From Deltaproteobacteria bacterium (GTDB lineage Bacteria > Desulfobacterota > Binatia > UTPRO1), in NCBI GenBank assembly GCA_029262315.1, contig JAJCZP010000168.1:10825-74824 (forward strand): a stretch of 64,000 bases of DNA. Reading direction: 5' to 3'. The notes beneath the pieces were generated by a model. The model was not told the origin of the DNA. It was given only the letters and a program-made list of their open reading frames with translations, and did no database searches. Every line of letters starts with the position of its first letter. The first letter of the stretch is position 1. Below, piece by piece: positions 956-17,983 of this stretch. The position numbers and the translations under genes are program-made.

Positions 956-989
956 CCTAGGGATGGGCAGGACCGTTCACATCCCTAGG
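956..989. promoter_or_regulatory. 10-bp perfect inverted repeat (cctagggatg N14 catccctagg) upstream of hydrolase start
   Basis: Read directly from sequence. It lies ~75-110 nt upstream of the minus-strand start at 880. Candidate operator or hairpin. Confidence 0.25.
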
Positions 990-1083
990 AACGGGGGAAA
1001 AACGGGGGACCACCTGGGGGAGTGCTCATCGTCGCCGACCCGGATGCCTCTGACGAAGAGGGTCGCCTCATGCTCCTCGGAAG

Positions 1084-1416: not shown

Positions 1417-1740
1417 CTCATCCGAAGGTCAACCGTTGCACCGCCGTGGATAGGCGAGGACCCACGGTATCTGAGCGGCGTCCATGCACCCGACCTCGAA
1501 GTCGCTGATGCAGCGCACGGAATCGATCAGGTCTACGATGGTCGCCACGTCCGCTTCGCAGGTCGCTCCGAGCGGGCCTCTCGCTCCACCGCCCACATAG
1601 CCGTCCTGGGCAAGGTGCCCTTGGGCATACGCGAGTGCTCGCCTACTGCGAGCGCGACACTATAGCGTTCGTCGAACTCCACGCCGCGTCGCGAAAGATA
1701 GGCCGCTAGCTCGATGTCGCCACCGGGAGGCTACGGCGCC

Positions 1741-2844: not shown

Positions 2845-3554
2845 GCCACGCCGGACCCGCGCTTGGCTGGAATCTCGAGTCCGCGCCTTTTCAGCTCCCG
2901 TACCGTCTGCACGAGCGAGCGCACGGCGCGGAACACCTCGAACACCGACGCAACGGCCGTCCGGACCCGCTTGTCGGGATCCTTCCGCCAGCGACCCGTC
3001 CTGACTTCACGATCGCCCGAGCGCTCGTAGATCGCGCGATAGCCAACAGGCGGACGACTCACCGCCCGCCTATCTCGCACCTTGGCGATCCTGCCACGAT
3101 GCATGTTCTCGGTCCGGAGCTCGTTGTCACGCCCAGCGACGATCGCCTCGATCTGCTTCACGAACACTTGCGCCGAGTCGTGGGGATCGACGAGTCGACC
3201 GTCCACGATCAGCAAGACGTCGTGCGCCGCCAGCAGGCGTAGGAACAAGATCCATTCGACTGGGTCGCGGCCCGCTCGGCTGACATCCGAAATCAGGACG
3301 GCGCCCAGCTCGCCGCGCCGGATCATCGCCAGGAGCCTCTGGTAGCCCGGCCGCTTCGCCGTCATGCCGCTGAGCCCGAGGTCATCGTCGATCATGACGA
3401 TGTCGCGCTCCGACCACCCCAGGCGGAGCGCGTGCTCACGCTGTCCCTCTTGGTATCGCCGGCTGCCCTCGTTCTCTCTGACCTGCTCCAGCGTCGACTG
3501 CCGCTGGTATACGCCAGCCTTCTTCTTCAAGTACCGCTCTTCGATCTTCGTCAT
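2724..3554 (-). CDS. large serine recombinase, N-terminal part (resolvase/invertase catalytic domain plus start of recombinase domain)
   Basis: AGVYQRQSTLEQ carries the catalytic Ser. VLISDVSRAGRD, then ...NPAFCGDYVYG recombinase-domain motif. The ORF ends at 2724 while the continuation is in another frame (1741..2844). This is either a frameshifted pseudogene or a sequencing indel. Confidence 0.7.
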   Translation of the reverse strand: MTKIEERYLKKKAGVYQRQSTLEQVRENEGSRRYQEGQREHALRLGWSERDIVMIDDDLGLSGMTAKRPGYQRLLAMIRRGELGAVLISDVSRAGRDPVEWILFLRLLAAHDVLLIVDGRLVDPHDSAQVFVKQIEAIVAGRDNELRTENMHRGRIAKVRDRRAVSRPPVGYRAIYERSGDREVRTGRWRKDPDKRVRTAVASVFEVFRAVRSLVQTVRELKRRGLEIPAKRGSGVAWVAPTVARVRYLIRHPAFCGDYVYGMVNKRKSARRGSPS

Positions 3555-3743
3555 CGCTGCTTCCCTCCCCTACTCCTAGGTGCGCGCCCAGCACGCAGTT
3601 CTCGCCCTTTGGCCCCTGCCTTCCCCCGAGTCGCAGGGGGGAGCGCGACAACGCCCCCGTGCACCGCCTTGATCGCGAGATGCGCTAGCAACCTGACGGC
3701 GTCCGCCTTCCGCTTGTCGGCCTCCATGGGATGGACGACTAGC

Positions 3744-3783
3744 GCATGAGCTAACATGTTTCAAAAATTGTATGATCTCATGC
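3744..3783. promoter_or_regulatory. AT-rich imperfect inverted repeat (gcatgag N26 ctcatgc) in an otherwise GC-rich region; candidate att/recombinase or promoter site
   Basis: Seen in sequence, ~190-235 nt upstream of the serine recombinase start. Includes an ATGCAT palindrome at 3780-3785. Confidence 0.25.
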
Positions 3784-3961
3784 ATCGTATATCTCCGCTG
3801 TTACTTCGCGGGCTTACGCACGGTCGGCCTCGGCGCGGATCGTCTCGCCTCCAGATCCGTGAGGAGCTGGTGGAGGGCCCGAACCGACACGACTGCGCGG
3901 TCGAGGTCGCACCCTCGGCGGTTGTCGCCTCGCCGGTCGATGGGACCTTCCCGAACGCGAC

Positions 3962-4180
3962 TCATCGCAGCTTCCCCGTACCCGGCTGCGGAGTCCGATC
4001 GGTGGAGCCCTCAAGATCCTTCCCCTGGAGGAACTCCTCTAGAGCAGCGCGGGGCACGACGAAGCGACGCCCGACCCGAACAACCGGTATCTGCCCTTGG
4101 CGAGCTGCCTCGTAGGCACAGCTACGCCCTATCCCGAGGACCTGGGCCGCCTCTTCCACTGTCAGGGTCTCCCTCTCCAT
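3962..4180 (-). CDS. excisionase / AlpA-like helix-turn-helix DNA-binding protein
   Basis: 72 aa. LTVEEAAQVLGIGRSCAYEAARQGQIPVVRVGRRFVVPRAALEEFL matches the excisionase-family HTH_17 pattern. Confidence 0.7.
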   Translation of the reverse strand: MERETLTVEEAAQVLGIGRSCAYEAARQGQIPVVRVGRRFVVPRAALEEFLQGKDLEGSTDRTPQPGTGKLR

Positions 4181-4267
4181 CCCCTCACCTCACTGCTGAC
4201 CCTTGAACTTATAGCGATCGGCTACTAGTAAGGTAACACGCTTTCTCGCACATAAACGTCACGGAGG

Positions 4268-5353
4268 ATGGGGATGATAGATGAGGTCGTGAGGCGAGAG
4301 TTGTTCGACTTCTGCTGGGACGTGCACGTGGACGGCTACACGTTGCTCAAGACGAAGACGGTGAAGAACCGCCCCCCGCTAGTTCGCCCTACACGTCCCA
4401 GGGGCGACGCTGAGCAGGATGTCCATGAACTCGACAAGGAACGGTCACGACCCGCGCTGTTCATCACTAGTGGCCTCCCGCTCGAAGCTCAGGGATTCAA
4501 GCTGAGGAGGTTCGCCCCGCTCGCCGAGACCGGGTTGTTCCGCGAATTCGCGGGGACGGCACCTACACCAGAGGGAGTCCTGGCATTCGCTAACAAGTAT
4601 GGCCTCCTCGGCGGCAGGGTTGCGGCCGAGATCGAGCTTGACCGGCAAGCCGGTCGTGCCGCCGCTCTGGGTGAACCGCTGAGTGCCTGGCGCGATCAGA
4701 TCTTCTTCATTCGCGAGGCTCTGAGGCTCTGGGAGGATACTCGCGCGGGCAATGTCGAACGCCTCGCCAAGGTGATCCGCAAGCGAGAGGTTAGCGGCGA
4801 CGAAGGCGTCGAGTACCAAGCAGAGGAACACCCCAGCAATGAGGTCGGGTTCCCATGCTGGTACGAGAAAATCGCCACGAGAAACGTTTACTCGGACATC
4901 CTCGAGGCTTTTCCGCCAGGTGACTTGATCAAACCCGCGCTCTACCTCGTCCAGCGATGGGTGAACCGGCATCTAGAGGGAAACGTCTCACCCCTGATGC
5001 TGTGGGACAAGCACCGCTTGCGCCTGCAGCTGTACGTCGTGCCGCACAACCTGCTTGGCGCACTCTGGCTGCAGCTTGCTCGAGCGATCGAGGGAGACAA
5101 GATGTACCGCCAGTGCGGGGCCTGTATGAAGTGGTTCGAACTCTCCCCGGACACGGCCCGAACGAATCGGAAATTCTGCTCGAACGCCTGTCGGTCACGC
5201 GACTATCGCGAGCGCACTGCTGCCAGCATGCCTGCCGCTTCCCGAGGGCCTTCTGCCGACCCGCCCGCAAGACGGGAGAAGCCGACATCGCGACGTCAGC
5301 AAGGAAAGGCCGGGGCATCGAGAAGCCGGACCCGGAAGGGAGCAACCAAATGA
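4268..5353 (+). CDS. hypothetical protein with C-terminal zf-CGNR-like zinc ribbon and basic tail
   Basis: C-terminus YRQCGACMKWFELSPDTARTNRKFCSNACRSRDYRER resembles the CGNR zinc finger (C-x2-C ... RxxxFCS.ACRxRxYR). Its stop overlaps the integrase ATG (ATGA), implying translational coupling. An AT-rich divergent promoter region lies at 4181-4267. Confidence 0.5.
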   Translation: MGMIDEVVRRELFDFCWDVHVDGYTLLKTKTVKNRPPLVRPTRPRGDAEQDVHELDKERSRPALFITSGLPLEAQGFKLRRFAPLAETGLFREFAGTAPTPEGVLAFANKYGLLGGRVAAEIELDRQAGRAAALGEPLSAWRDQIFFIREALRLWEDTRAGNVERLAKVIRKREVSGDEGVEYQAEEHPSNEVGFPCWYEKIATRNVYSDILEAFPPGDLIKPALYLVQRWVNRHLEGNVSPLMLWDKHRLRLQLYVVPHNLLGALWLQLARAIEGDKMYRQCGACMKWFELSPDTARTNRKFCSNACRSRDYRERTAASMPAASRGPSADPPARREKPTSRRQQGKAGASRSRTRKGATK

Positions 5354-6519
5354 GGGGACACATTCGACAACGAGGGCAGAGGTCATGGGCGATCGTCCTC
5401 GATCTCGGTCGCGATGCACGAGGCAAGCGCCGACAGAAATGGCACAAGGTTGCCGGGACCAAGCGCGATGCCCAGCGAGAGCTTACTCGCCTACTTCGGG
5501 ATCTCGATACCGGCACCTACGTCGAGCCGTCGCAGATGACAGTCGGCACCTACCTCGAGAAGTGGCTGCGCGACTACGCGAAAACCAACGTCTCCGCCAA
5601 GACATTCGAACGCTATGCCGAGATCGCCCGCGTCCACCTCATCCCTGCGCTCGGCCACTTGCCTCTCGCAAGGATCCAGCCGCTTCATATCCAAGACTAC
5701 TACTCCGTCGCCCTAGAGAGCGGTCGTCGCGACGGCCACGGCGGGCTTTCTGCTCAAACGGTGCTCCATCATCATCGCCTGCTGCGGGCGGCCCTGCGCC
5801 AGGCGCTGAAGTGGCAGCTTCTCGGGCGGAACCCGGCCGACGCCGTCGAGCCTCCCCGGCCCAAACGTCCCGAAATGCGGGTCCTGGATGCAGCGGAAAC
5901 TGGTCGGCTCGTGGCGAGTACGAAGGGAACACGCCTATTCCTTCCTGTGCTGTTGGCCGTCACAACGGGCATGCGACGCGGAGAGATCCTTGGACTCCGT
6001 TGGAAGGACGTGGACTTGAAAAAGGCGACGCTGGCCGTACGACGGTCGCTCGAACAGACCAAGGGCGGCATTCAGTTCAAAGAACCGAAGACGCAGAAGG
6101 GGCGACGCGTGGTAGCTCTGCCAGAAATCGCCGTCGATGCCCTCCGCTCACACAAGACTCGGCAGGCAAAGCATCGCCTCCTATTGGGTCGTGTCTATGA
6201 GAATGGCGATCTCGTTTGCGCCAAGGAAAACGGTAAGCCGACCGTCCCCGCCGATCTCAGCAAGTCCTTCGCACGCCTTCTCGGTCGCCTGGAAGGCGAC
6301 GTCCCGCCGATTCGACTCCACGACCTCCGGCACACTCACGCGACACAATTGCTGCGCGAAGGCATCCACCCGAAGGTCGTTAGCGAGCGGCTCGGCCACT
6401 CGACGGTGGCTTTCACCCTCGACGTCTATTCCCATGTGCTGCCCAGCATGCAGGCTGATGCCGCCCGAAGCATCGACCGCGCACTTGCTCACACCGGAGT
6501 AGCGAACGACACCGATTGA
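5350..6519 (+). CDS. tyrosine-type site-specific integrase (phage integrase family)
   Basis: MRGHIRQRGQRSWAIVLDLG... has the N-terminal arm-binding/SAM-like organisation. Catalytic signature is RRGEILGLRWKDVDL...HDLRHTHAT...LGHSTVAFTLDVYSHV (R..HxxR..Y). The long ORF from 4957 is rejected because its upstream part is the out-of-frame tail of the preceding gene region. Confidence 0.85.
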   Translation: MRGHIRQRGQRSWAIVLDLGRDARGKRRQKWHKVAGTKRDAQRELTRLLRDLDTGTYVEPSQMTVGTYLEKWLRDYAKTNVSAKTFERYAEIARVHLIPALGHLPLARIQPLHIQDYYSVALESGRRDGHGGLSAQTVLHHHRLLRAALRQALKWQLLGRNPADAVEPPRPKRPEMRVLDAAETGRLVASTKGTRLFLPVLLAVTTGMRRGEILGLRWKDVDLKKATLAVRRSLEQTKGGIQFKEPKTQKGRRVVALPEIAVDALRSHKTRQAKHRLLLGRVYENGDLVCAKENGKPTVPADLSKSFARLLGRLEGDVPPIRLHDLRHTHATQLLREGIHPKVVSERLGHSTVAFTLDVYSHVLPSMQADAARSIDRALAHTGVANDTD

Positions 6520-6640
6520 TTTCGACCGCTTCGCGCGACGCTCCCGGCACGACTCTCCGCAAGCTGTTTCGTTCTGATACTCGTCGCACAGGCTCCCGCT
6601 TTCGATTGCGACGGCGCCGCCTTCCAGGTACCGGTGTCGC

Positions 6641-7732
6641 ATGGCCATCCGCCGGGTGCTCATCGAGAACTTCAGAAGCATCAAGAAATGCGAGTTCTTT
6701 CCAACCGACCTTTGCGCTCTTGTGGGGGAGAACAACGCGGGAAAGTCGAACATCCTCGAAGCGCTCGACCTAGTCCTCGGCAGGGACTTCGTAAGCGTGA
6801 ATACCTTCGCGGCATCTGACCACTTCAACCACGACCCAGCTGCGGACATCGTCATCGAAGTGGAGTTCGACCCACCGCTGAAGATCCAGCCGTTCAAGGG
6901 TAGCAGTCCCGTCGAGATCCCGGTTCTGCGCTACACTGTCACCCAGTTCAAGGTCGCAACGAAGCGCGGCAAGAAGGGCGACCCCAGACTGGATACGAAG
7001 TGCCTCGCTACCGACGGGAAGCCGGTTTTCATCCCACAAGAGGCTCCGAAGAAGGGCAAGAAGACGACTTTTGCTCCGCTGACGAACATCCCTCCAGAAG
7101 TCCGCGAGCAGATGCCGGTAATTTTCATAGGGACTGACCGAAGCCTTGATCGACAGCTTCCCTCAGCCGGTCGATGGTCGTTGCTTCGCCGGCTCCTTGA
7201 AGACGTGAACGATCGGCTGCGTGAGACTACCGTTACGGTCGAGAGCAACGGTAAGCTTGTGGAAAAGTCGGCTGTCGAGGTCTTCGAGGAGCAGCTCGCC
7301 TCTGCGCTCGGCACCCTTCGAATTCCGGAGTTCCAACAACTAGAGGAACTCCTGCGTGTACACGCACTCGAGAACCTCGGCTACGACCCCGAGCACGACG
7401 CGGACCGACTGCGCTTCCACTTCGGGCTCTTCGACTCGATGGCCTTCTACCGGACAGTCCGGCTTCTCTTCACAGAAGGAAGTCTCGAACTGGACGCGAC
7501 GCAAATGGGAGAGGGGGCGCAGAACGCACTCGTCATCGCGATCTTCCAGGCGTACGAGGCGCTGCGAAAGAAGGAAGCTGTCTTCCTCCTCGAGGAACCA
7601 GAGATGTTTCTACATCCGCATCGCCGTCGCTTCTTTTACCAAACCCTGCAACGCATCAGCGAGAACAACCAGATCCTCTACAGCACCCATTCTGCCAACT
7701 TCGTCTCGACGCCGGAATACGAGAACGTGTGA
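6641..7732 (+). CDS. OLD-family (overcoming lysogenization defect) ABC-type ATPase domain protein
   Basis: N-terminus IENFRSIKKCEFFPTDLCALVGENNAGKSNILEALDLVLG has the Walker A of the AAA_15/OLD family, cf. P2 Old. C-terminus AVFLLEEPEMFLHPHRRR...YSTHS has Walker B plus H-loop. It ends at TGA 7730-7732. Confidence 0.8.
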   Translation: MAIRRVLIENFRSIKKCEFFPTDLCALVGENNAGKSNILEALDLVLGRDFVSVNTFAASDHFNHDPAADIVIEVEFDPPLKIQPFKGSSPVEIPVLRYTVTQFKVATKRGKKGDPRLDTKCLATDGKPVFIPQEAPKKGKKTTFAPLTNIPPEVREQMPVIFIGTDRSLDRQLPSAGRWSLLRRLLEDVNDRLRETTVTVESNGKLVEKSAVEVFEEQLASALGTLRIPEFQQLEELLRVHALENLGYDPEHDADRLRFHFGLFDSMAFYRTVRLLFTEGSLELDATQMGEGAQNALVIAIFQAYEALRKKEAVFLLEEPEMFLHPHRRRFFYQTLQRISENNQILYSTHSANFVSTPEYENV

Positions 7733-8697: not shown

Positions 8698-11124
8698 TCA
8701 CGGATTGCACTCTGCCGCGTACTCGATACCGACCGCCGACACGTCATCCCCCACGCTCGCATCGGCCATGCAGTCGGCCTTGAACTCGAGAACGCAGCTG
8801 ATGCAGTCGACGTACTCCTGCAGGGTATCGACGTCGGCGTTGGTGCAGTCGAGGCCACTCGGATGAACGCCGTTCGGCGGCACACTGACGCTCGGGCATA
8901 CGTACGGCAGGTCGACGATGTCGCCGAGCGTGATCGTCACGCCGCTCACGGGTTCACCAACGGCATCACACACGCCGTCCTTGTCGGCGTCGCCGCCCCC
9001 ACCGCACGTCTTGCAGATCTTGGCGATGCTCTTCTGCTCGGCCTTTTTGATCTTCTCGGTGGTCTTGCTGTCGCCGGGGGTGGCGGGTGGATTGCCCGAG
9101 CCGAGTGAGGGATCGGTCTCGGGACATGCGTCGGCATCGTCATATCCGGTCTTGCTCTTCAACTTGGCGTCCCAGCACTTGTTCAAGAGCTTGTGCTTGG
9201 TCACCAGGAACTTGCCGCCCTCTTTGGCGATGGTCTCCTGACACTTGTTGACCCGCTTCCCGGGATCGCCGCTGTTGGCCGGGAAGAAGCTCGCCGTGTT
9301 GAACTCGTCGTAGAGGAGATGGTCGACGGCCTGATCCACGGCCTTGTCGACGATACATTCGAGGCACGTTCCGATGCCGCCACAATCGGTGATGGCATTG
9401 TCGCATTCGGTCCCGGTGCCTGACTCGAGGTTCATGCAGCTGCCGATGCCCCAGCCGATCGCAGCGAGCGTCTCGTCACCGTCACCCGGGGCAACCTCAC
9501 AGATCCTGTTCGACCCCCCGCAGCGCTTGGCGATCCCGTCCTTCAGCTTGGTGACGGCACGGTCGATCTTGCTACCGGGGGTCTTCAGGGCCGCGACCGT
9601 GCAGTTGGCAAAGTCGGGCATGAGCGGCGGATCGCCGCGGGTCATCGACGCTTTCTTGCACTTGTCGATGTTCTTCTGCACCTGCTTCGCGTACTTGCCG
9701 ACTTCTTTGTTGATGGCGCGCGTACACTTGGCGGAGTCGCTGCTTGCGGGTGTGGCCACGCCATCAGCAATCCCCTCGATGGCCGCCACGAGGGCGTTGT
9801 ACGCGATCAACTGGCCGGCGTTCAGGTTGCCGACGGGAAGCAGATTCATGGTCTCGAACGGGAAGGCGTTCAGGTCGAAGAACTCTTCATACACCCCATT
9901 CCGCCAGATCAACTTGTACTGATCGTCGCGAACGGCACGCTGCTCGTCGGTATACGGACCGAAACCGTTCGGCTCGAAGCGCTCGGCGTAGGAATAGGGC
10001 CGAGCCGAGGAGGTCGTGAGCGTGGGATCTTCGAGATACGGCACGAAACTCAGCGAGTCTTCGGTCGCGGCTGCGACCCCTGCGATCTCGGCGATGGTCG
10101 CGAGCAGATCCACCGAGCTGACGAGCGCCTGGCTCTCGTCGCCTTCGTCGAGGGCATCGATCCGCGGGCCCGTCACGATCAACGGGACGTTGGTTCCACC
10201 TTCGTACAGCGACCCCTTGGCGTGCGGCCCGGTGAACGGGGATTCCGACGCGCCCGACGGCGTACCGTTGTCGCCGATGAAGATGACCGTGGTATCGGCC
10301 CGGATGGGAGCAGGAATACTCGCCAATACACGGCCGATCTCGGTGTCCATCGCTTCCACGGCGGCCTTGAACTTGGTGGGATTGTCGGAGCCGGCATTGA
10401 CCGCAATGGTCGTGAGACTCGGTGGCGGCACGTGGAACGGCGTATGGGCAGCGTTGAACGCCAGCCACACGAACCACGGATCCTCGCCATACTCGGCGAT
10501 CTTCGCGATCGCCTCGTCGGCGGCGTCGGTCGTAGCATAGGTGGTCACGCCGACCTGGGTGGAGCCCGTCGTGCTCGTCGAGTTGGTCGTCTTGTTCCAC
10601 GATTCGTAGTCGCCGATGCCACCGCCGAGCCCGCCGGCGTAGTAGTCGAAGCCGGTGTCGATCGGGTGGTCGACATCGCCGTTATCGCCGATGTGCCATT
10701 TCCCGATCGCGGCGGTGTGATGCGTCGCCGTAAGTAACTCCGGAATCGTCGTCTCGTCGAGATCGAGCACCGCCGACTCGGGCACGCCGATGCCGGTCCG
10801 GAATCCGTAGCGTCCGGTCAGGGCCTCGGCGCGTGTCGGCGCGCATACGGGGTTCGTCGATGCGTGGCGAAACAGGATGCCGTCGGCGGCCAGCTGATCG
10901 ATATTGGGCGTGGGACCCGGAGCCGCCCCTTCGCCGTAGACGTTGATCCCGTCCACGCCGACGTCATCGGCGATGATGATCAGGAAGTTGTCTCGCGCCT
11001 GCGCCCACGTGGGGAGGAGAACGGCGACGAGCAACGCGATTGCCCGGAGCGCGCTCGCACTCCGACGTACGCGGCCCGCGTTGGTGGCGTGGCCCGCGTG
11101 AGCAACTCTTCGGGTTCTCGACAT
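8698..11124 (-). CDS. secreted formylglycine-type sulfatase (arylsulfatase family) with ~330-aa Cys/Lys-rich C-terminal extension
   Basis: Signal peptide ...ALRAIALLVAVLLPTWAQA. LIIIADDVG and NPVCAPTRAEALTGRY are the C-x-P-x-R formylglycine motif. GKWHIGD is also present. The C-terminal ~330 aa carry about 26 Cys in two similar modules (KCTRAINKEVGKYAKQVQKNIDKCKK... / KCQETIAKEGGKFLVTKHKLLNKCWDAKLK...). Confidence 0.8.
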   Translation of the reverse strand: MSRTRRVAHAGHATNAGRVRRSASALRAIALLVAVLLPTWAQARDNFLIIIADDVGVDGINVYGEGAAPGPTPNIDQLAADGILFRHASTNPVCAPTRAEALTGRYGFRTGIGVPESAVLDLDETTIPELLTATHHTAAIGKWHIGDNGDVDHPIDTGFDYYAGGLGGGIGDYESWNKTTNSTSTTGSTQVGVTTYATTDAADEAIAKIAEYGEDPWFVWLAFNAAHTPFHVPPPSLTTIAVNAGSDNPTKFKAAVEAMDTEIGRVLASIPAPIRADTTVIFIGDNGTPSGASESPFTGPHAKGSLYEGGTNVPLIVTGPRIDALDEGDESQALVSSVDLLATIAEIAGVAAATEDSLSFVPYLEDPTLTTSSARPYSYAERFEPNGFGPYTDEQRAVRDDQYKLIWRNGVYEEFFDLNAFPFETMNLLPVGNLNAGQLIAYNALVAAIEGIADGVATPASSDSAKCTRAINKEVGKYAKQVQKNIDKCKKASMTRGDPPLMPDFANCTVAALKTPGSKIDRAVTKLKDGIAKRCGGSNRICEVAPGDGDETLAAIGWGIGSCMNLESGTGTECDNAITDCGGIGTCLECIVDKAVDQAVDHLLYDEFNTASFFPANSGDPGKRVNKCQETIAKEGGKFLVTKHKLLNKCWDAKLKSKTGYDDADACPETDPSLGSGNPPATPGDSKTTEKIKKAEQKSIAKICKTCGGGGDADKDGVCDAVGEPVSGVTITLGDIVDLPYVCPSVSVPPNGVHPSGLDCTNADVDTLQEYVDCISCVLEFKADCMADASVGDDVSAVGIEYAAECNP

Positions 11125-11327
11125 GGCTTCACCCCCATCGTCGGATCAGTGCATCTGTTGAACCGCATTCAGGGTCACGGCGAGTCGGCACTCCCCCTAC
11201 GCGGCGTGCCAGCACTACAGCACTCGGGAACCCCTAGGGTCAACAGCGCACCAACGCTCATCTGGCCGGATTGCGATGTGCCCGCTTCGCAACCCGCACG
11301 GGCATCTGGCATCATCCGGCCGCGATC

Positions 11328-13652
11328 ATGCTTTATTTCCGTGTCAGCGAAGACCGCCCACGTACAGGGGAATCATCTTCGCGACGGCGGCAGTGGTCCC
11401 ATCCCGCCGTGCTCAGCGTCCTCGCAATGCTCCTGCTGGCTTGCGACGGCCCCACGGAGCCCACCGCACCCCCGGCGAACCCACCAACTCGGGCCGCGGC
11501 GACACCGGCCGCGCCCGCGGAGTACGTGACGAGCGAGGCGTGCGCTAGCTGCCATGCCGAAGCCTACGCGTCCTGGACAGGCTCGCACCACGACCTCGCC
11601 ATGCAACCCGCGACGGAGACGACTGTCGAGGGCGACTTCGACGACACCTCCTTCACGCACCGGGGAGTGACCTCGCGCTTCTTCCGCCGCAAGGAGCGTT
11701 TCGTCGTTCATACGCAGGGCGCCGACGGGGTCATGGCCGATTTCGAGGTCCTGTACACCTTCGGCGCGATGCCGCTCCAACAATACCTCGTTCGGCAACC
11801 GGACGGCCGGCTCCACGCGCTCACCACCGCCTGGGACGCGCGACCCGCGAGCGACGGCGGACAGCGCTGGTTCGAGCTGAACGATGGTGAGGTGCCACCG
11901 GGCGACGTGCTCCACTGGACAGGACCGGCTCAGAATTGGAACGCCACCTGCGCCGCATGCCATTCGACCGCCCTCCGGAAGGGTTTCGACATCGACGCCG
12001 GGACGTACGACACGACCTGGTCGGACGTGAACGTTGGGTGCGAGGCGTGTCACGGACCGGCCTCGCGACACGTCGCGTGGGCCGAGCGCGAACCAACAGA
12101 GAACACCGACGACGACACTCGCGGGCTGGTAGTCGATCTCGGCAACGACGGCGGGCGCTGGGTCATGAATCCCACGACAGGAATCGCCCGGCGCAGCACG
12201 CCACTCAGTACACGGACCGAGATCGACACCTGCGCCCCCTGCCATGCGCGACGCTCGATGCTACGTGAGGCGGATCCTGGCACTCCGTTTCTCGACGCCT
12301 ACCGTCCAGCATTGCTGGAGCCCGGGCTGTACCACGCCGACGGGCAGATCCGCGACGAGGTCTACGTGTGGGGCTCCTTCGTACAGAGTCGCATGTACCG
12401 TGCGGGCGTCACGTGCAGCGATTGCCATGAGCCACACACGCTGACCGTGCGCGGCGACACCGAACGCGTGTGCCACCAGTGTCACGATGTCGCGCGCTTC
12501 GGTACGACCGGGCATCACCACCATACGCCGGGAACACCAGGATCGGCTTGCGTCGACTGCCACATGCCTGCGCGCACGTACATGGGTGTCGACGAACGGC
12601 GCGATCACGGATTTCAGGTTCCGCGGCCGGATCTCAGCGCACGTCTCGATACCCCGAACGCCTGCAATGGATGCCACGCGGACCAACCCGCATCCTGGGC
12701 AGCGCGCGCGATCGCCGATTGGCCGGGCACGAAGCACGCGGGCACACCCCATTTTGCCGACGTGATGGTCACTGCCGCTCGCGGGGAGCCCGAGGCCATC
12801 CAAGGGCTGGCGGGCCTGAGCGCCGATCCGGACCTGGCCGGGATCGTGCGGGCGACGGCGTTGGCGCAGCTGCCCGGGGCGTTGACGCAGCTCCCCGGGG
12901 CCCCGGCCCCGCTCCTCGCCGCCGCCATCATGCGGGCGCGCGATGATACCGATCCACTGGTTCGCTTCGCCGCCGCGGGCGCCGCGGCTGGGCTCCCCCC
13001 CGCCGATCGCATCGCGCTGCTGACGCCTCTCCTTGCGGATCCCGTGGAGCTGGTTCGAAGCGAGGCCGGCCGCAACCTCGCGCCTGCGCCGCGAACCGCG
13101 CTCGACGCGGCGCAGGCCGAACGGCTCGACGCGGCCCTGCGCACGTACCGACGCCACCAACGGACGAACGCCGACCAGCCGAGCGCCCACGTCAATCTTG
13201 GCCTGCTCTACGCGGAGATGCAGCAACCCTCCCTGGCCGAGAGCGCCTACCGGCGCGCGATCGCGGTCGGGCCGTGGTTCATCCCGGCCTACGTCAACCT
13301 GGCCGATCTGTACCGCGCCACGGGACGGGACGAGAACAGCGAGGCGGTGCTGCTCGCCGCGCTCGAGCAGACACACGACGTCGCGGAGGTCCACCACGCA
13401 CTGGGCCTCCTCCGCGTGCGGCAACAGCGGCTCGATGCCGCCCTCCCTTCGCTCGAGACCGCTGCGACGCTCGCACCTGAGAATCCCCGCTTCGCCTACG
13501 TATACGGCGTGGCCCTGCACTCCTCCGGCCGGACCGAGCAGGCCCTCGACGTGCTGCGCGCGGCGCGCGCACGACATCCGCATCACACCGAGACGAGCCA
13601 GGCCCTCGCCACGTTCGGCCGCGAGCCCGGCGTCGACAGCGCCGACGACTAG
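11328..13652 (+). CDS. multiheme (8x CXXCH) c-type cytochrome lipoprotein with C-terminal TPR-like repeats
   Basis: Eight CXXCH motifs: CASCH, CAACH, CEACH, CAPCH, CSDCH, CHQCH, CVDCH, CNGCH. Lipobox LLLAC. The C-terminal ~250 aa are Ala/Leu-rich TPR-like (..AHVNLGLLYAEMQQPSLAESAYRRAIAVGP..YVNLADLY..). Start chosen is ATG 11328; alternatives are GTG 11409 and ATG 11427. The ORF from 11271 is possible. Confidence 0.7.
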   Translation: MLYFRVSEDRPRTGESSSRRRQWSHPAVLSVLAMLLLACDGPTEPTAPPANPPTRAAATPAAPAEYVTSEACASCHAEAYASWTGSHHDLAMQPATETTVEGDFDDTSFTHRGVTSRFFRRKERFVVHTQGADGVMADFEVLYTFGAMPLQQYLVRQPDGRLHALTTAWDARPASDGGQRWFELNDGEVPPGDVLHWTGPAQNWNATCAACHSTALRKGFDIDAGTYDTTWSDVNVGCEACHGPASRHVAWAEREPTENTDDDTRGLVVDLGNDGGRWVMNPTTGIARRSTPLSTRTEIDTCAPCHARRSMLREADPGTPFLDAYRPALLEPGLYHADGQIRDEVYVWGSFVQSRMYRAGVTCSDCHEPHTLTVRGDTERVCHQCHDVARFGTTGHHHHTPGTPGSACVDCHMPARTYMGVDERRDHGFQVPRPDLSARLDTPNACNGCHADQPASWAARAIADWPGTKHAGTPHFADVMVTAARGEPEAIQGLAGLSADPDLAGIVRATALAQLPGALTQLPGAPAPLLAAAIMRARDDTDPLVRFAAAGAAAGLPPADRIALLTPLLADPVELVRSEAGRNLAPAPRTALDAAQAERLDAALRTYRRHQRTNADQPSAHVNLGLLYAEMQQPSLAESAYRRAIAVGPWFIPAYVNLADLYRATGRDENSEAVLLAALEQTHDVAEVHHALGLLRVRQQRLDAALPSLETAATLAPENPRFAYVYGVALHSSGRTEQALDVLRAARARHPHHTETSQALATFGREPGVDSADD

Positions 13653-13697
13653 CAGAAGCCCGCACATCAGCTCGCTCATCGAGAGCTGACGCGATCG

Positions 13698-13730
13698 GCA
13701 CCCGCCTCCCGCTGGCGGGTGCCGTGTTTT
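13698..13730 (+). terminator. rho-independent terminator downstream of cytochrome gene
   Basis: gcacccgcc-tcccgct-ggcgggtgc, a 9-bp GC stem with 7-nt loop, followed by cgtgtttt. Confidence 0.55.
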
Positions 13731-13992
13731 GCTCCCTCCGCATCCGGGGCCCCACCCGCACGGCGATAGCGCACCCCAGACCCGCACCCAAGCGCGCGCA
13801 CCGAAAGCCGAAACGCGCAGGCGCGCCCGCGCCCACCATGAGACTTCCCGTGCCTCGCGCCACTCGCCGTCGCGGGCGCGCGACTTGCTGTTTCCCTCTG
13901 TCGTGAGCAGACCGAACACGAATTCGACGCACTCCACGGGCCGTAGCGCCGAGCGCACTGCGCGTGCGACCACGCAACCAAGCGGCGCCGCC

Positions 13993-15009
13993 GTGGCGGG
14001 CGTCACGAAATCGTCGACCTCACCCTCGAAACGACAACGGCTTTCGAAGGCGGCGCTCGCCCTCCTCGTGGGCGTGCTGGCAATCGCATGGAGTCCGCGC
14101 GTCGAGGCGTTGATCGTTGGCGGCGGAGGCAGCCGCACAACGGACTGCCTCGCCGTCTTCAACGCGCCCGCGAATCGCCCCGCGCGCCGGCCACGCCACA
14201 TTCAGTGCACCGACGGCGACCCCTGCGATGCGGACGGCCTGGTCGATGGCCAGTGCAGCTTCCCGGTCGCGGCCTGCATCAACAGCACGCTGATCGATCG
14301 CTGCTCCCTGACCGGCATCGAGACCCTCACGGTCGAGCATGCCGAGGACAATGGCGACCCGGAGTTCGACCCCGACTTCCAGGCACTGCAGGCGCGCATC
14401 GACGCCGACCTGACTTTCCCGAGCCTCGCGACGAACCAGTGTGCGCTACCAGCCACGATCCAGGTACCCGTCCGCGGGCCCTTCCGGAAGAATCGCTGCA
14501 AGAAGGGGAAGAAGCGCCTGCGAATGCGCGCCGTCTCGACCCTGATCGACGACCGACGCGTCAAGGTCGATCGCGACGACCTCAAGCTCACGTGCCTGCC
14601 GGCACCGAGCGGCTGCAGTCCACGTCAATTCTTCTCGTCCACCTTCGATCGAGTGCAGCGCCAGATCTTCAATCAGACCTGCGCGGTCAGTGCCTGCCAC
14701 GACTCGGAAGCCGTCGCGGGCAGCCTGCTCCTCGAGACGGGCGCGTCGCATGCCAACCTGGTGGGCGCGATCCCAACGAACGCTCTCGCCGGGAATGCCG
14801 GCTGGCACCGCGTCGCGGTTCCCGCGCCGGGCACCGGCGATCTCACACGAAGCTACCTGCTGCACAAGATCACGGGGGACCTGCCCACAGGCTTCGGCTC
14901 ACGCATGCCTCTCGGCGGACGCAAGCTCGATCGCACGTTGGTGGACGTCATCACGCTTTGGATCGCCGCGGGTGCTCCGAACGACGGGTGGGTCCCCGGA
15001 ACAGACTAG
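13993..15009 (+). CDS. secreted Cys-rich protein with C-terminal PSCyt1-like (planctomycete cytochrome-c-like) domain
   Basis: Putative signal peptide KRQRLSKAALALLVGVLAIAWSPRVEA after GTG 13993. C-terminus FDRVQRQIFNQTCAVSACHDS...LLLE...VPAPGTGDLTRSYLLHKITGDLP...MPLGGRKLDRTLVDVITLWIAAGAP matches the PSCyt1 pattern but with C-x4-CH instead of CXXCH. Start is uncertain; the long ORF from 13729 has an Arg-rich, unlikely N-terminus. Confidence 0.45.
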   Translation: MAGVTKSSTSPSKRQRLSKAALALLVGVLAIAWSPRVEALIVGGGGSRTTDCLAVFNAPANRPARRPRHIQCTDGDPCDADGLVDGQCSFPVAACINSTLIDRCSLTGIETLTVEHAEDNGDPEFDPDFQALQARIDADLTFPSLATNQCALPATIQVPVRGPFRKNRCKKGKKRLRMRAVSTLIDDRRVKVDRDDLKLTCLPAPSGCSPRQFFSSTFDRVQRQIFNQTCAVSACHDSEAVAGSLLLETGASHANLVGAIPTNALAGNAGWHRVAVPAPGTGDLTRSYLLHKITGDLPTGFGSRMPLGGRKLDRTLVDVITLWIAAGAPNDGWVPGTD

Positions 15010-15034
15010 GGCTTTCAGGAGGAGGAGAGACGAC

Positions 15035-16546
15035 ATGGGAGATGCGAACACCCTATTGACCCCGGCGGAAACCCGCCATGTGCTGAAGCGAACCGGCTTC
15101 GGACTCTCGAAGCGCGATCGGCGTACCGCGGAGCGCAATCGCAAATCACGCGGCGCCTTCGTCGACAAGCTGTTGCGGGCGAAACCGAAGAGCCCGCGCT
15201 TCAAAGGCGACAGCTTCAGCAACGCGCAGGACGCCTGGCTCATCCATTTGTCCAAGACCAAGGCGGTACTTCCCGAAAAGCTGGTGCTCTTCTGGCACGA
15301 CCACTTCTCGACGGGCATCGACGTCGTCGCGCGCACCGGCCTCATGACGCAACAGAACGAGTTGCTGCACACCTTCGCGAAGGGAAACTTCAAGGAGTTC
15401 GTGCGGGCGATGAATCGCAACCCGGCGATGATGGAGTTTCTCGACACGGTGCGGAACCGCAAGGAGAACCCGAACGAGAACTATCCGCGCGAGCTCTGCG
15501 AGCTCTTCACGCTCGGCGTGAAGGACCTGCTCGGACAGCCGAACTACACCCAGGACGACATAGTCCAGATCGCACGTGCGTTCACGGGCTGGCGCTATTC
15601 GGCTCCCGAGCGACGGGATGAGCGCCTCTACGAGCGTTCCGAGCCCTTCTTCGAGGAGAGCCGCCACGACTTCGCGGCCAACTATCCCGAGCGCGGCCCA
15701 AAGACGATCTTCACCACCACCGGCGGCTTCGGCCCGGGCGGCGCCGCGTTCGACGCCGACGGCGAAGGCCCGAGCGAGATCGACACAGTCATCGACATCC
15801 TGTTCGCGCACCGCGACAGCGAGGGCATGAACACGATCGCCCGTCGCACGGCGTACCGGCTGCTCGAGTATTTCGCGCACCCGAACCCGGACTTGGCGGT
15901 GGTGGACGAGGTCGTTGCGACGTCGAACTTCGACACCACCTGGAACATCAAAACGCTGCTCCGGGCGATCCTCACCCACGATGCGTTCTATGTCACCGCC
16001 GCACCCGCACCGTTCAATGCCTCGACCATCAAATCCGTGAAGTGGCCGATCGATCTGGTGATCGGCACGATCCGCGCTCTCGGCATGAAGCTCAAAGTCG
16101 ACCGGGAACGCGGTCTGCGGATCGAGGGCGGCGGCCGGGCACGCCTCCGCTCCCATCTCGAAGAGATGGGGCAGGAGCTCATGAACCCGCCGAGTGTCTT
16201 CGGCTGGGACTGGGAAGTGGCGTGGCTGAGCAGTGCGACGCTTCTCGCCCGTTTCGTGTTCGCGCGCGATGTCGGCGCGGCTCGCGGGAGGGGCCGCAAT
16301 ACCTTCATTCCGAAGAAGGTCCTCAACCTGAGACTCACCGATCCAGACGCCATCGTCGATGCCGTGCTCGCCATCCTCGGCCTGTCGGACCAACTCAGCG
16401 CGGCAGAACACGCGGCACTGGTCGACTATCTCACCGATGGCGGCACGCTCACGTCACTCGACCTGAAGGACGAGGACACGCACGACGAGCGACTGCATGG
16501 ACTGTTCGCACTGGCGCTGCAGGCGCCGGCCTATCAGCTGCACTAG
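15035..16546 (+). CDS. DUF1800 family protein
   Basis: LVLFWHDHFSTG and NENYPRELCELFTLGV...YTQDDI are DUF1800 signature blocks. ATG 15035 is preceded by AGGAGGAGGAG. The upstream in-frame extension to 14690 is Arg-rich junk. Confidence 0.75.
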   Translation: MGDANTLLTPAETRHVLKRTGFGLSKRDRRTAERNRKSRGAFVDKLLRAKPKSPRFKGDSFSNAQDAWLIHLSKTKAVLPEKLVLFWHDHFSTGIDVVARTGLMTQQNELLHTFAKGNFKEFVRAMNRNPAMMEFLDTVRNRKENPNENYPRELCELFTLGVKDLLGQPNYTQDDIVQIARAFTGWRYSAPERRDERLYERSEPFFEESRHDFAANYPERGPKTIFTTTGGFGPGGAAFDADGEGPSEIDTVIDILFAHRDSEGMNTIARRTAYRLLEYFAHPNPDLAVVDEVVATSNFDTTWNIKTLLRAILTHDAFYVTAAPAPFNASTIKSVKWPIDLVIGTIRALGMKLKVDRERGLRIEGGGRARLRSHLEEMGQELMNPPSVFGWDWEVAWLSSATLLARFVFARDVGAARGRGRNTFIPKKVLNLRLTDPDAIVDAVLAILGLSDQLSAAEHAALVDYLTDGGTLTSLDLKDEDTHDERLHGLFALALQAPAYQLH

Positions 16547-16567
16547 GACACGAGGGGGGAACGACTC

Positions 16568-17983
16568 ATGGCAATCACACGACGACAGTTTCTGAAGCGC
16601 TCGAGTGCGGCGGCGGCAGGTGGCTTCTTCGGGCCGACACTTCTTGGCAACGGCTGGATGCACCAGGCACTCGCCGACACGATCGGCGACCGATACTTCG
16701 TCCTGCTGTTCCTCGACGGTGGCAACGACGGCCTGAACACGGTCTCGCCGATCGACAACGGCGGCGGGCTCCTTCGCACGGCCTACGATGGATGGCGGAA
16801 TACCGGCGTCGGCGGCATCAATCTGTCGCCAGGCGAGCTGAGCCCGCAAGCGATCGCAGCCGATCCCGGCACGGGCGCCCAGCTCGGACTCCACCCGGGG
16901 CTGGCCGATCTGAAGACGCTCTACGATCTCGGCAAAGTGGCGGTCATCCAGGGGTGCGGCTACCCCGATTTCAGCCTCTCGCATGACGACTCACGACGCG
17001 CCTGGCGCACGGGGTCACCGGGTGGCACCTCGTCGACGGGATGGATGGGCCGGTATTTGGCCGCGAACTACGTCGGCACGGACATCCCCGCGGCCGGCAT
17101 CTCGAACGGAGTACCGGGCGAGTTCGTGCAGAGCGCCACCAGCGTGCTCACCGTGCGCCGGGTGCGCGACTTCCGCTTCCCGTACGACAACAGCTTCCGT
17201 TCGGACATTGATCTGAAACGGACGATATTCAACGATCTGCACGAGTCCGCTCGAGCCGGGGGGCAGCCGAGCGTACTCACGCACATCGGCAACGCCGGCA
17301 CGGCGACGCTGCTCAGCACTGAAGCCTACCCGGCACTCCACGACACGTATCAGCTGGAGCGGCCGACCTGGGATCAAGCGTACAGCGACAACAGCAGCAG
17401 CACGTCGAACGACCTCCGTGAAGTCGCCAAGATCATCTACGGCGTCGAGAGCGGGGTTCCGAACGTCAATGCGCGCTTCTTTCAGGTACGCAACGGCGGC
17501 TACGACACCCATTCGGACCAGGGCGGCGCCAACCCGGATGGCAGCCACTTCAACCTGCACAATGAAGTCGGCAGCGCGCTGAAGCTCTTCTACGACGACC
17601 TGGCCGACATGGGCGCGATCGACAAGGTATGCGTCATGGTCTTCAGCGAGTTCAGTCGTCGGATCCCGCAGAACGACAACGGGACGGACCATGGATCGCA
17701 GGGCCCGATGTTCGTCATCGGCGGCAACGTGGTCGGCGGCACCTATGGCAACCATCCCAACATCGAGGAGAGCGCGCTCGATCGATCGGGGAATACCGTC
17801 TACTCACAGGATGGGGTGGACTCGTTCCGCTCGACTGACTTCCGCGACGTGTACGGCACGGCGCTCAAGCACTGGTTGAACATGCCACACGGGCAGATCC
17901 TCACCGATGTGCTCCCGCTCGATAGCGGCGATCCGGCCGAGTGGTGGACGACCGAGAACTTCGACATGGGCTTCCTACCCTAG
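16568..17983 (+). CDS. DUF1501 family protein, Tat-exported (sulfatase/alkaline-phosphatase-like superfamily)
   Basis: Twin-arginine signal MAITRRQFLKRSSAAAAGG. VFSEFSRRIPQNDNGTDHGSQGPMFVIGGNVVGG is the DUF1501 core. DUF1800/DUF1501 commonly form a gene pair. Confidence 0.8.
   Translation: MAITRRQFLKRSSAAAAGGFFGPTLLGNGWMHQALADTIGDRYFVLLFLDGGNDGLNTVSPIDNGGGLLRTAYDGWRNTGVGGINLSPGELSPQAIAADPGTGAQLGLHPGLADLKTLYDLGKVAVIQGCGYPDFSLSHDDSRRAWRTGSPGGTSSTGWMGRYLAANYVGTDIPAAGISNGVPGEFVQSATSVLTVRRVRDFRFPYDNSFRSDIDLKRTIFNDLHESARAGGQPSVLTHIGNAGTATLLSTEAYPALHDTYQLERPTWDQAYSDNSSSTSNDLREVAKIIYGVESGVPNVNARFFQVRNGGYDTHSDQGGANPDGSHFNLHNEVGSALKLFYDDLADMGAIDKVCVMVFSEFSRRIPQNDNGTDHGSQGPMFVIGGNVVGGTYGNHPNIEESALDRSGNTVYSQDGVDSFRSTDFRDVYGTALKHWLNMPHGQILTDVLPLDSGDPAEWWTTENFDMGFLP

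Follow-up and report, generated by a model that had tools for sequence, protein, structure and literature searches.

In the window, by which we mean the whole stretch of 64,000 nucleotides analysed, a gene for a secreted two-domain protein (here geneA), a DUF1800 gene and a DUF1501 gene form a three-gene operon that is conserved as a unit across Candidatus Binatia and uncultured lineages allied to it. The linkage of the three genes is real, and no description of it was found in the literature searched. The open reading frames are co-directional and tightly spaced, with intergenic gaps of 25 nt (geneA/DUF1800) and 21 nt (DUF1800/DUF1501) and Shine–Dalgarno-like runs 5′ of the second and third genes, GGAGGAGGAG lying 5′ of the DUF1800 ATG. 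We read them as an operon because these short gaps come with ribosome-binding sites and because the gene order recurs across genomes. A first-pass annotation of this DNA had described a PSCyt1-like secreted protein followed by a DUF1800–DUF1501 pair and had proposed a neighbouring sulfatase and multihaem cytochrome as their functional context; what it observed was confirmed in part, and its interpretation found partial support. The features of the locus are:

8698-11124, minus strand: sulfatase with a CAPTR formylglycine motif, 5′ of the trio
11271-13652: multihaem cytochrome–TPR protein (octahaem, eight CXXCH), 5′ of the trio
13993-15009, plus strand: geneA, 338-aa two-domain protein, predicted from the sequence to be secreted, of a family with no Pfam or NCBIfam model
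13993-14109, plus strand: predicted Sec-type signal peptide of geneA, with basic n-region KSSTSPSKRQRLSK, hydrophobic AALALLVGVLAIAW and SPRVEA cleavage region
14113-14610, plus strand: geneA N-terminal disulfide-rich beta-sandwich domain with 10 invariant Cys, from invariant alignment columns and the AF2 model
14608-15006, plus strand: geneA C-terminal cytochrome-c-like domain of PSCyt1/class-I type, from profile search, BLASTP and AF2
14680-14700, plus strand: CAVSACH (C230-x4-C235-H236), proposed to attach haem covalently and to supply the proximal His
14905-14910, plus strand: M305-P306 of geneA, proposed distal (sixth) haem ligand, invariant in orthologues
15035-16546, plus strand: DUF1800 protein, 503 aa, all-alpha, without signal peptide (Pfam PF08811)
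16568-17983, plus strand: DUF1501 protein, 471 aa, with Tat signal, putative metalloenzyme (Pfam PF07394)
16568-16675, plus strand: twin-arginine signal peptide of DUF1501 (MAITRRQFLKRS...HQALA/D), from TIGR01409 and RRQFLK

Conservation of the neighbourhood was assessed in a synteny set of 80 species-level genome loci of geneA, 78 of which could be evaluated for the downstream neighbour. DUF1800 lies directly 3′ of geneA in 72 of the 78, and among those 72 loci DUF1501 is also seen in 64 and a contig end cuts 8; geneA stands without a downstream DUF1800 in the other 6. The median gap from the geneA stop to the DUF1800 start is short (21 nt) and thus suggests co-translation. The arrangement is kept at loci whose DUF1800 and DUF1501 are down to ~32% identity, no other neighbouring gene family occurs in more than 14 of the 80 loci, and in several genomes the trio is present as at least two paralogues, every one of which includes a geneA copy. 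As motif and gene order are both conserved across the 80 species-level genomes, they are not the product of chance. All geneA loci come from one broad lineage, made up of Binatia and MAGs labelled 'Deltaproteobacteria'.

The family models agree with the description of the downstream genes as a DUF1800 followed by a Tat-exported DUF1501. The DUF1800 protein matches PF08811 over model positions 1–419 of 419 (E 2.4e-81, 274.5 bits vs. a cut-off of 26.1) and carries the invariant motifs WHDHF, PNENYxRE, HD and WxWE; its N-terminus begins with M1-G2, invariant in all 39 aligned homologues, and has no hydrophobic leader. Its AF2 model (pLDDT 89, pTM 0.89) gave no Foldseek match in the PDB at E ≤ 0.001 (best 0.44), and phmmer found no sequence relatives there; neither search, nor the comparison with PSCyt2 and PSD1, yielded a hint of what chemistry DUF1800 performs. 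DUF1501 matches PF07394 over model positions 5–345 of 390 (E 2.3e-22, 80.1 bits vs. 27) and the Tat model TIGR01409 (24.9 bits vs. 16.7), with R5, R6, F8 and A36 (RRxF) invariant in 16 orthologues. Further invariant residues are found in GGNDGxNT (D54), S138-H139, GGxDxH (D313, H315), E361/R364, Q368-N369 and GTDH (D374, H375), among which D54, S138-H139, D313/H315 and D374-H375 would fit the pattern of a metal site. We take PF07394 to sit in the Pfam alkaline-phosphatase clan; enzymes of the alkaline-phosphatase superfamily as a rule catalyse hydrolysis or group transfer and not redox reactions. No sequence relatives of DUF1501 were found in the PDB, and an hhalign comparison of its alignment with the sulfatase of the window was not significant (probability 0.2), aligning only the first-strand D-x-x-x-DG segment. 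The sulfatase-superfamily fold that the first pass had assigned to DUF1501 thus went unconfirmed in this comparison.

GeneA has 161 relatives at E ≤ 1e-3; every one of the 120 listed is either unnamed or annotated as 'hypothetical'. With the GTG at 13993 as start, the signal peptide is complete; the start chosen by NCBI (P0001, 313 aa) lies 25 codons further in, within the hydrophobic core. Equivalent N-termini occur in the orthologues, ahead of an invariant GGGG-x3-DC. The N-terminal domain carries the Asp-rich motifs CxDGDxCDxDG and HAxDNGDPxFDPDFQ and is mostly beta in the AF2 model, with 10-residue block means of ~73–91 over residues 71–220 and 51–78 over residues 41–70. A profile search with this domain returned nothing beyond the geneA family and fragments of it, apart from a few paralogues of ~190 aa that stand alone. 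Compared with the PDB by Foldseek, the geneA model had no match at E ≤ 0.001 (best 0.17) and no cytochrome match.

For the C-terminus, sequence comparison supports a cytochrome-c-like domain of PSCyt1 type in which the motif is the variant CX4CH, by homology and not by Pfam membership. GeneA gives no Pfam or NCBIfam match even at E ≤ 10, either as the whole protein or as the C-terminal 108 aa alone. The first-pass annotation had held that its PSCyt1-like reading would fall if the PSCyt1 model (PF07635, gathering threshold 22 bits) did not recognize the protein, and with no match the reading formally fails on its own terms; sub-threshold PSCyt1 matches occur in 4 of 31 orthologues (best E 0.0023). 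The likeness itself survives by means other than the Pfam HMM, as the C-terminal 130 aa are homologous to PSCyt1 units. BLASTP aligned the C-terminus with residues 38–144 of the protein P0213, a CXXCH unit, at 40% identity (E 7e-18); the PSCyt1 match on P0213 (26.1 bits vs. 22, residues 54–117) lies inside the aligned unit, and the sole motif difference is two added residues between the Cys. A profile of the geneA C-terminal domain collected 7,255 representative proteins (E ≤ 1e-3), in many of which the unit occurs in tandem. The units matched by the profile pass Pfam PSCyt1, Cytochrome_CBB3 or Cytochrom_C, and single CXXCH units that pass PSCyt1 cover almost all of the profile, with scores of up to 62 bits. 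PSCyt1 matches on CX4CH units begin at model position 3, so that the second Cys and the His fall on the C-H of the model. The 'Planctomycete cytochrome C' domain and geneA are collinear from the pre-motif helix, past the (R)MP loop, as far as the C-terminal helix with WI..GA and share the His after the second Cys and the conserved Met-Pro. They differ in that PSCyt1 has CXXCH, whereas geneA has CX4CH and stays below the Pfam threshold, and in that the geneA cytochrome domain is joined to a novel Cys-rich domain and not fused to PSCyt2 or PSD1. In the AF2 model, helix 217–230 leads into the putative haem motif and helix 314–325 follows the Met loop at the C-terminus.

The unusual Cys spacing noticed in the first pass is genuine: the geneA sequence ...FNQTCAVSACHDSE... 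contains C230-x4-C235-H236, and this motif shares its reading frame with the Cys-rich N-terminal part; the first pass had allowed that a wrong start might place the Cys-rich region in another frame. The motif is also kept by orthologues, being invariant in 31/31 aligned sequences, with CAxxxCHDS present in 120/120 orthologue clusters and 80/80 genome loci and CXXCH absent from all 120 clusters. A conserved Met-Pro follows ~69 residues after the His. We surveyed 272 superfamily units in 141 proteins, 184 of them CX4CH and 83 CXXCH, and found Met-Pro at the geneA profile position in 173/176 CX4CH and 80/81 CXXCH units (98% of each); 24 of the 141 related multi-domain proteins hold both kinds of unit, pointing to interchange. 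GeneA has the class-I-like c-type features of an export signal (read from the sequence), Cys-Xn-Cys-His and a distal Met before the C-terminal helix, and the AF2 helix order fits. The pLDDT falls below 50 at residues 231–250, which in a predicted model is consistent with a haem-dependent loop. The host genome makes c-type cytochromes, as a protein with eight CXXCH is encoded next to the trio. Tetrahaem cytochrome c3 also has CX4CH haem sites. CX4CH is a documented rare covalent haem-attachment motif (PMC11492766; PMC6469936) and binds haem in solved cytochromes (PMC6469936). Multihaem CX4CH sites, such as haem 3 of hydrazine dehydrogenase (PMC6469936) and those in the rare-motif list (PMC11492766), share the spacing and the following proximal His but belong to bis-His multihaem folds, whereas geneA would be monohaem and class-I-like, with a probable His/Met pair.

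We give about an even chance to the reading in which geneA is a Sec-exported monohaem cytochrome dedicated to redox exchange with a periplasmic DUF1800/DUF1501 enzyme. GeneA, combining the disulfide-rich beta-sandwich with a monohaem c-type domain, would be exported by Sec and would hold its haem via C230 and C235, with H236 and M305 as axial ligands. DUF1501 would be a metal-dependent member of the alkaline-phosphatase superfamily, exported by Tat; DUF1800 would fold with it in the cytoplasm and then ride across the membrane with it as a 'hitch-hiker' on Tat. On the periplasmic side, geneA may dock on DUF1800/DUF1501 and carry electrons, in one direction or the other, between the enzyme and the respiratory chain, the complex acting as a redox enzyme on some periplasmic substrate. 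The Acidisarcina DUF1800 carries its own signal peptide, and hitch-hiking is thus at most clade-specific. In the SorAB sulfite dehydrogenase, which is periplasmic, the catalytic subunit is exported via Tat and the cytochrome c subunit via Sec, from adjacent genes in one operon. The trio would share this export logic (Tat enzyme, Sec cytochrome, one operon) as a functional analogy only, SorAB-type dehydrogenases having no sequence or fold kinship to it and no redox cofactor being identified in DUF1501/DUF1800. Counting against a dedicated redox partner are the absence of any curated cytochrome model passed by geneA or cytochrome match in Foldseek, the 6/78 uncoupled loci, the DUF1800–DUF1501 pairs of other phyla that have no such cytochrome nearby and the normally non-redox nature of the superfamily.

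Alternatively, the C-terminus could be a degenerate cytochrome-like fold without haem, C-x4-C-H serving as a disulfide or metal site and geneA as an accessory without redox function, such as a subunit binding substrate or partner through its beta-sandwich. We consider this unlikely. The failure of geneA to pass curated cytochrome HMMs, its non-canonical Cys spacing and its ten further invariant Cys, which make it clearly a disulfide-rich periplasmic protein, would fit, as would the carbohydrate-binding modules often carried by PSCyt-bearing proteins of Verrucomicrobia (PMC5615132). A disulfide or structural role, however, leaves unexplained both why an invariant His follows the second Cys and why Met-Pro is invariant at the class-I distal-ligand position, and it sits poorly with CX4CH and CXXCH units that interchange at the same position within single proteins and with the haem bound by CX4CH in solved structures (PMC6469936).

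It is rather improbable that geneA is a genuine cytochrome that serves the periplasm as a general electron carrier, placed beside the pair by inherited gene order and with no specific partnership. The confinement of every locus to one broad lineage and the 6/78 uncoupled loci are in its favour, together with the closest di-domain CX4CH relatives of geneA, which are not adjacent to DUF1800 or DUF1501, and the DUF1800–DUF1501 pairs without a cytochrome elsewhere. Yet the linkage has outlasted both the reshuffling of its surroundings, where other neighbours reach at most 14/80 loci, and the divergence of its partners to ~32% identity; paralogous trios each retain a geneA, and the median gap suggests co-translation. 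Very improbable, and largely refuted by synteny, is a joint role of the trio with the sulfatase and multihaem cytochrome beside it, such as breaking down sulfated substrates with coupled electron transfer: the CAPTR sulfatase and octahaem–TPR genes do lie immediately 5′ of the trio, but they flank it otherwise only in the closest relative (86% identical), just 2/80 species-level loci have a sulfatase-family ORF within 8 kb and 0/80 an ORF with three or more CXXCH at that distance, the sulfatase is on the opposite strand and a strong terminator-like hairpin with a T-run (13696-13724) separates the multihaem gene from geneA, even though sulfatase genes often adjoin PSCyt genes in Verrucomicrobia (PMC5615132). 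The neighbourhood that the first pass had proposed is conserved for DUF1800–DUF1501 and not for these flanking genes.

The dedicated-partner reading has a published counterpart. In Planctomycetes and Verrucomicrobia, the strongest associations of DUF1501 genes are with proteins that carry PSCyt1/PSCyt2/PSD1 cytochrome motifs (Kamneva et al. 2012, PMC3542564), and by analogy the trio parallels these PSCyt–DUF1501 modules. In the modules of Planctomycetes, Verrucomicrobia and Lentisphaerae (PMC3542564), as in the trio, a Tat-signal DUF1501 stands beside a PSCyt1-type cytochrome-motif gene; the modules have also multiplied within genomes, and an electron-transfer role has been proposed for them. 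There, however, the partners are PSCyt2 (DUF1549) and PSD1 (DUF1553), whereas the Binatia trio has DUF1800, and the trio cytochrome is a separate small gene in a lineage outside PVC. The 39 DUF1800 homologues gave no PSCyt2 or PSD1 match even at E ≤ 10, and no relationship of DUF1800 to either was detected among them.

DUF1800–DUF1501 is itself a recognized operon pair, found for example beside horizontally transferred chitin synthase genes (PMC5122149). We saw it in replicons of Thermus, Chondrinema, Miltoncostaea, Sphingomonas, Azospirillum and Acidisarcina. In many bacteria the pair has the same order, tight spacing and Tat motif on DUF1501, but those pairs lack a PSCyt1-like or CX4CH gene 5′. 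Since the pairs of Thermus, Chondrinema, Sphingomonas, Azospirillum and Acidisarcina, all in other phyla, have no such cytochrome nearby, a cytochrome is not generally required by the pair; in the Binatia clade, geneA has been added to it as a third conserved member.

Window positions 13993-17983 contain three genes on the forward strand, with 25 nt between the stop of the first and the ATG of the second and 21 nt between the end of the second and the ATG of the third:

13993-15009, + strand, gene A, 338 aa, GTG start, TAG stop
15035-16546, + strand, DUF1800 gene, 503 aa, ATG start preceded by GGAGGAGGAG
16568-17983, + strand, DUF1501 gene, 471 aa, ATG start after GAGGGGGG

Homologue alignments match only these frames and starts. 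Longer overlapping ORFs called mechanically (13729-15009, 14088-15059, 14690-16546 and, on the minus strand, 12261-14201) were rejected as shadows usual at ~65% G+C; for 14690-16546 this concerns only the upstream part, the rest being the DUF1800 frame. The case raised in the first-pass annotation, that gene A might have a wrong start or frame, was rejected because the entire 13993-15009 frame is conserved as protein. At 13993-14070 the public NCBI call of the protein (P0001, 313 aa) differs in its start, which lies 25 codons 3' of the GTG at 13993 and within the signal peptide's hydrophobic core. This start is probably mis-called, which would keep the protein out of secretome predictions. We regard the operon and the family assignments as close to certain.

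The second gene covers the full Pfam DUF1800 model (E 2.4e-81, 274.5 bits). Its product lacks a signal peptide, and the Met-Gly start is invariant in 39 of 39 aligned homologues. The AlphaFold model (pLDDT 89, pTM 0.89) is nearly all helix, and both Foldseek (no match at E<0.1) and sequence searches turned up no relative in the PDB. A site for a metal or a substrate is suggested by the invariant WHDHF, PNENYxRE, HD and WxWE motifs. A scan of the 39 homologues at E<=10 gave no similarity to PSCyt2 or PSD1. The third gene matches Pfam DUF1501 (E 2.3e-22, 80.1 bits); the protein, with the N-terminus MAITRRQFLKRS...HQALA↓D, scores 24.9 bits on the twin-arginine signal model of NCBIfam, above the cut-off of 16.7. 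Across 16 orthologues with identity down to 35%, the RR pair, D54 in GGNDGxNT, S138-H139, D313, H315, E361, R364, Q368-N369 and D374-H375 are invariant, from which we infer a putative metal site and nucleophile of the alkaline-phosphatase-superfamily kind. Profile comparison with hhalign gave no significant match between DUF1501 and the sulfatase of the window, and a sequence search of the PDB found no DUF1501 relative of solved structure.

Gene A, searched whole or in halves, had no match in Pfam and NCBIfam, even at E<=10. It belongs to a family of well-conserved "hypothetical" proteins of ~320 aa, with 161 relatives at E<=1e-3, that a genome-collection scan traced to MAGs with labels such as Candidatus Binatia, "Deltaproteobacteria" and Polyangiaceae. 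The family alignment divides into a signal peptide, an N-domain with ten invariant cysteines and Asp-rich motifs, and a C-domain whose invariant residues include C230, A231, C235, H236, D237, S238 and M305-P306. In the AlphaFold model (pLDDT 77.8), the N-domain is a beta-sandwich of fair confidence, and in the C-domain one helix runs up to the Cys motif while another, at the C-terminal end, follows the Met loop. Model confidence collapses precisely at residues 231-250, a behavior consistent with a loop that would need haem for folding. Against the PDB, Foldseek with this model found nothing at E<0.1, and sequence searches with gene A and its C-domain profile gave nothing meaningful. Profile searches recovered the N-domain only in its own family, in fragments and in a few stand-alone paralogues, and HMM searches found no second copy of either domain in the window. 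Two Binatia loci (L087 1537-2684 and L088 1528-2675) carry two tandem stand-alone N-domain paralogues of 191 and 189 aa (~32% identity), without a cytochrome domain and not adjoining DUF1800.

The first-pass annotation had ascribed the C-terminus of gene A to PSCyt1 (PF07635, planctomycete cytochrome C). As a matter of HMM membership the assignment fell, but homology to PSCyt1 units was recovered. Among 1.84 billion representative proteins, 7255 matched a profile built on residues 206-338 at E<=1e-3, and 1498 did so at E<=1e-10; many of the matched proteins have two to seven units in tandem. In sampled matches, Pfam PSCyt1, Cytochrome_CBB3 or Cytochrom_C fell on the matched units, and single CXXCH units reached 62 bits over profile positions 10-128. 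The clearest link to PSCyt1 is the CXXCH protein P0213, residues 38-144 of which align with the C-domain at 40% identity (BLASTP E 7e-18), collinear save for a two-residue gap between the cysteines (C--TSCH vs CAVSACH); this protein passes PF07635 at 54-117, within the aligned unit (26.1 bits vs 22). Where Pfam touches CX4CH units, the PSCyt1 match begins at model position 3, so that the second Cys and the His fall on the Cys-His of the model. On the strength of the profile matches, the collinear alignment and the model-position match, we identify the C-domain as a PSCyt1 homologue that lies below the Pfam threshold for membership and has two residues inserted into its haem motif.

The variant spacing pointed out by the first-pass annotation holds across orthologues, with C-x4-C-H-D-S/T in 120 of 120 clusters among the matches listed and in 80 of 80 genome loci, and CXXCH in none of them. 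The feature is genuine and invariant, yet not unique to the gene A protein. We counted units in the best 150 of the 7255 representative matches, a ranking biased to CX4CH, as in the query profile: of 272 motif-covering units, 184 were CX4CH, with the consensus C-A-(V/T/L)-S-G-C-H, 83 were CXXCH, 2 CX3CH and 3 truncated. Within these 150 matches, both spacings occurred in one protein in 24 of 141 cases, and Met-Pro occupied the distal-ligand position in 173 of 176 CX4CH units and 80 of 81 CXXCH units. CX4CH is a rare but documented covalent haem motif (PMC11492766), present at haem 3 of hydrazine dehydrogenase (PMC6469936). According to one of the two main rival explanations, gene A is a non-haem accessory. 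Clustering of the flanking ORFs at 80 loci found no conserved nearby gene fit as a dedicated haem lyase; the interchangeability of the units, the invariant His and the invariant Met-Pro would be expected of a haem site, not of a disulfide. Gene A probably binds haem. CX4CH marks a large PSCyt1-like subfamily, tested members of which have no match in the Pfam/NCBIfam libraries searched. Since this version of the PSCyt1-type domain is common and tested examples escape Pfam, metagenome counts of c-type cytochromes by motif may overlook CX4CH proteins.

Conservation of the neighborhood was borne out among 80 loci from one-genome-per-species contigs compared by tblastn, 78 of which were evaluable, the other two stopping straight after gene A. 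DUF1800 lies directly 3' of gene A on the same strand in 72 of the 78 and is missing downstream in 6; the median distance from the gene A stop to the DUF1800 start is 21 nt. DUF1501 is present too in 64 of the 72; at the remaining 8 the contig breaks off first. The order persists in a deep branch whose DUF1800 and DUF1501 share only ~32% identity with those of the window. The other main rival holds that gene A is a general-purpose cytochrome and that this linkage is mere synteny. As clustering of all flanking ORFs showed every other family at 14 or fewer of the 80 loci, the three genes are the conserved unit.

Several Binatia-type genomes have two or more trios per MAG (paralogous pairs from single MAGs: L013+L045, L023+L027, L007+L049, L030+L066 and L040+L052), which suggests diversification comparable to that of the DUF1501 modules that have multiplied in Planctomycetes and Verrucomicrobia. 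One trio copy, on a 618-kb contig (L086 6001-10045), looks broken, with gene A cut to 194 aa and DUF1800 in two pieces, probably by an assembly frameshift error rather than as a pseudogene. Locus L001 has a BatA/BatD/VWA/DUF58 ("Bat" aerotolerance-like) cluster upstream of the trio (1-6792). ORF clustering points to upstream genes common to about 14 loci (L001 and 13 others, e.g. L008), which we take to be this cluster in one sub-lineage; the L001-type cluster is not conserved outside that group.

Upstream of the trio, the window contains the following genes:

4957-6519, + strand, phage-type integrase
6641-7732, + strand, AAA_15/AAA_21 (AbiEii/OLD-like) ATPase, after the integrase and just upstream of the sulfatase
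8698-11124, - strand, Cys-type sulfatase (Pfam Sulfatase 1.1e-40, CAPTR formylglycine motif)
11271-13652, + strand, multihaem protein, eight CXXCH fused to HEAT/TPR repeats, possible lipobox LLLAC near the N-terminus

The sulfatase and the multihaem cytochrome, proposed earlier as functional context, flank the trio only in an 86%-identical relative. Within 8 kb of the trio, a sulfatase-family ORF was found at 2 of the 80 loci and an ORF with three or more CXXCH at none. The proposed context thus finds no support. The sulfatase has a cysteine-rich C-terminal extension of ~360 aa without a Pfam match, and HMM searches found no relation between this tail and the gene A domains. At 13696-13724, 3' of the multihaem gene, a G+C-rich hairpin of 11 bp with a T-run resembles that gene's own terminator; hairpin/T-run sites are no more numerous in the region than expected by chance. 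The integrase and the ATPase (4957-7732) may mark the border of an integrated element or defence island.

In Planctomycetes, Verrucomicrobia and Lentisphaerae, DUF1501 genes often have Tat signals, and their strongest association is with proteins that carry PSCyt1, PSCyt2 and PSD1; Kamneva et al. put forward an unknown electron-transport role (PMC3542564). He et al. found such genes abundant in freshwater Verrucomicrobia (PMC5615132), and in Proteobacteria DUF1800 and DUF1501 are known as an operon pair (PMC5122149); the literature examined assigns no function to DUF1501 or DUF1800. The Binatia trio newly merges two known patterns, the DUF1800-DUF1501 pair and a separate PSCyt1-like cytochrome. 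In contrast, the pairs on Thermus, Chondrinema, Sphingomonas, Azospirillum and Acidisarcina replicons are without such a cytochrome, which is therefore a lineage-specific addition. The locus is a real conserved, uncharacterised three-gene module, a variant of the known DUF1501-cytochrome and DUF1800-DUF1501 arrangements. The surroundings of the closest di-domain CX4CH proteins were uninformative.

The Miltoncostaea oceani plasmid NZ_CP064357.1 (L091 2817-3254, + strand) has a gene for a secreted protein of 145 aa, the stop of which overlaps the start of DUF1800. This protein has a type-1-copper-like C-x4-H-x4-M loop (CSLTGHRAHGM) and weak matches, under threshold, to Cupredoxin_1 (E 0.038) and sulfocyanin (E 0.093). 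This is at most a hint that a different small electron carrier may sit in the slot of the Binatia CX4CH cytochrome. The Acidisarcina polymorpha plasmid pACPOL2 (L092 1345-5112, + strand) encodes a DUF1800 protein of 1255 aa that has a signal peptide of its own but no cytochrome motif; Ig-like repeats take up ~800 aa before the DUF1800 part.

In the mechanism we propose, gene A would be exported via Sec, take up haem at CX4CH and work as a His/Met monohaem cytochrome. DUF1501 would cross folded via Tat, possibly with the signal-less DUF1800 as passenger, and the cytochrome would trade electrons with a DUF1800/DUF1501 enzyme acting on a periplasmic substrate. For this mechanism as a whole we see the chances as evenly balanced, and those of a dedicated redox partnership between gene A and DUF1800/DUF1501 as slightly poorer. 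The hitch-hiking of DUF1800 with DUF1501 is speculative and would not be general, since the Acidisarcina DUF1800 bears its own signal peptide.

A broader reading, which we think unlikely, makes DUF1800/DUF1501 a widespread periplasmic oxidoreductase, not a hydrolase, with a small electron carrier to the respiratory chain that differs by lineage. In Binatia the carrier would then be the stand-alone CX4CH cytochrome; in Planctomycetes and Verrucomicrobia it would be PSCyt1 domains fused to the large partner protein and, on weak evidence, in Miltoncostaea possibly the cupredoxin-like protein. If true, the CA-x-S-G-CH units would form a large haem-binding subfamily of class-I-like cytochromes without a match in the Pfam/NCBIfam libraries searched and invisible to CXXCH-based cytochrome surveys. 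DUF1501 and DUF1800 rank among the commoner uncharacterised exported protein families, and their steady coupling to a dedicated small cytochrome in one lineage, which independently echoes the PSCyt-DUF1501 association of Planctomycetes and Verrucomicrobia, would give them a testable handle: redox chemistry.
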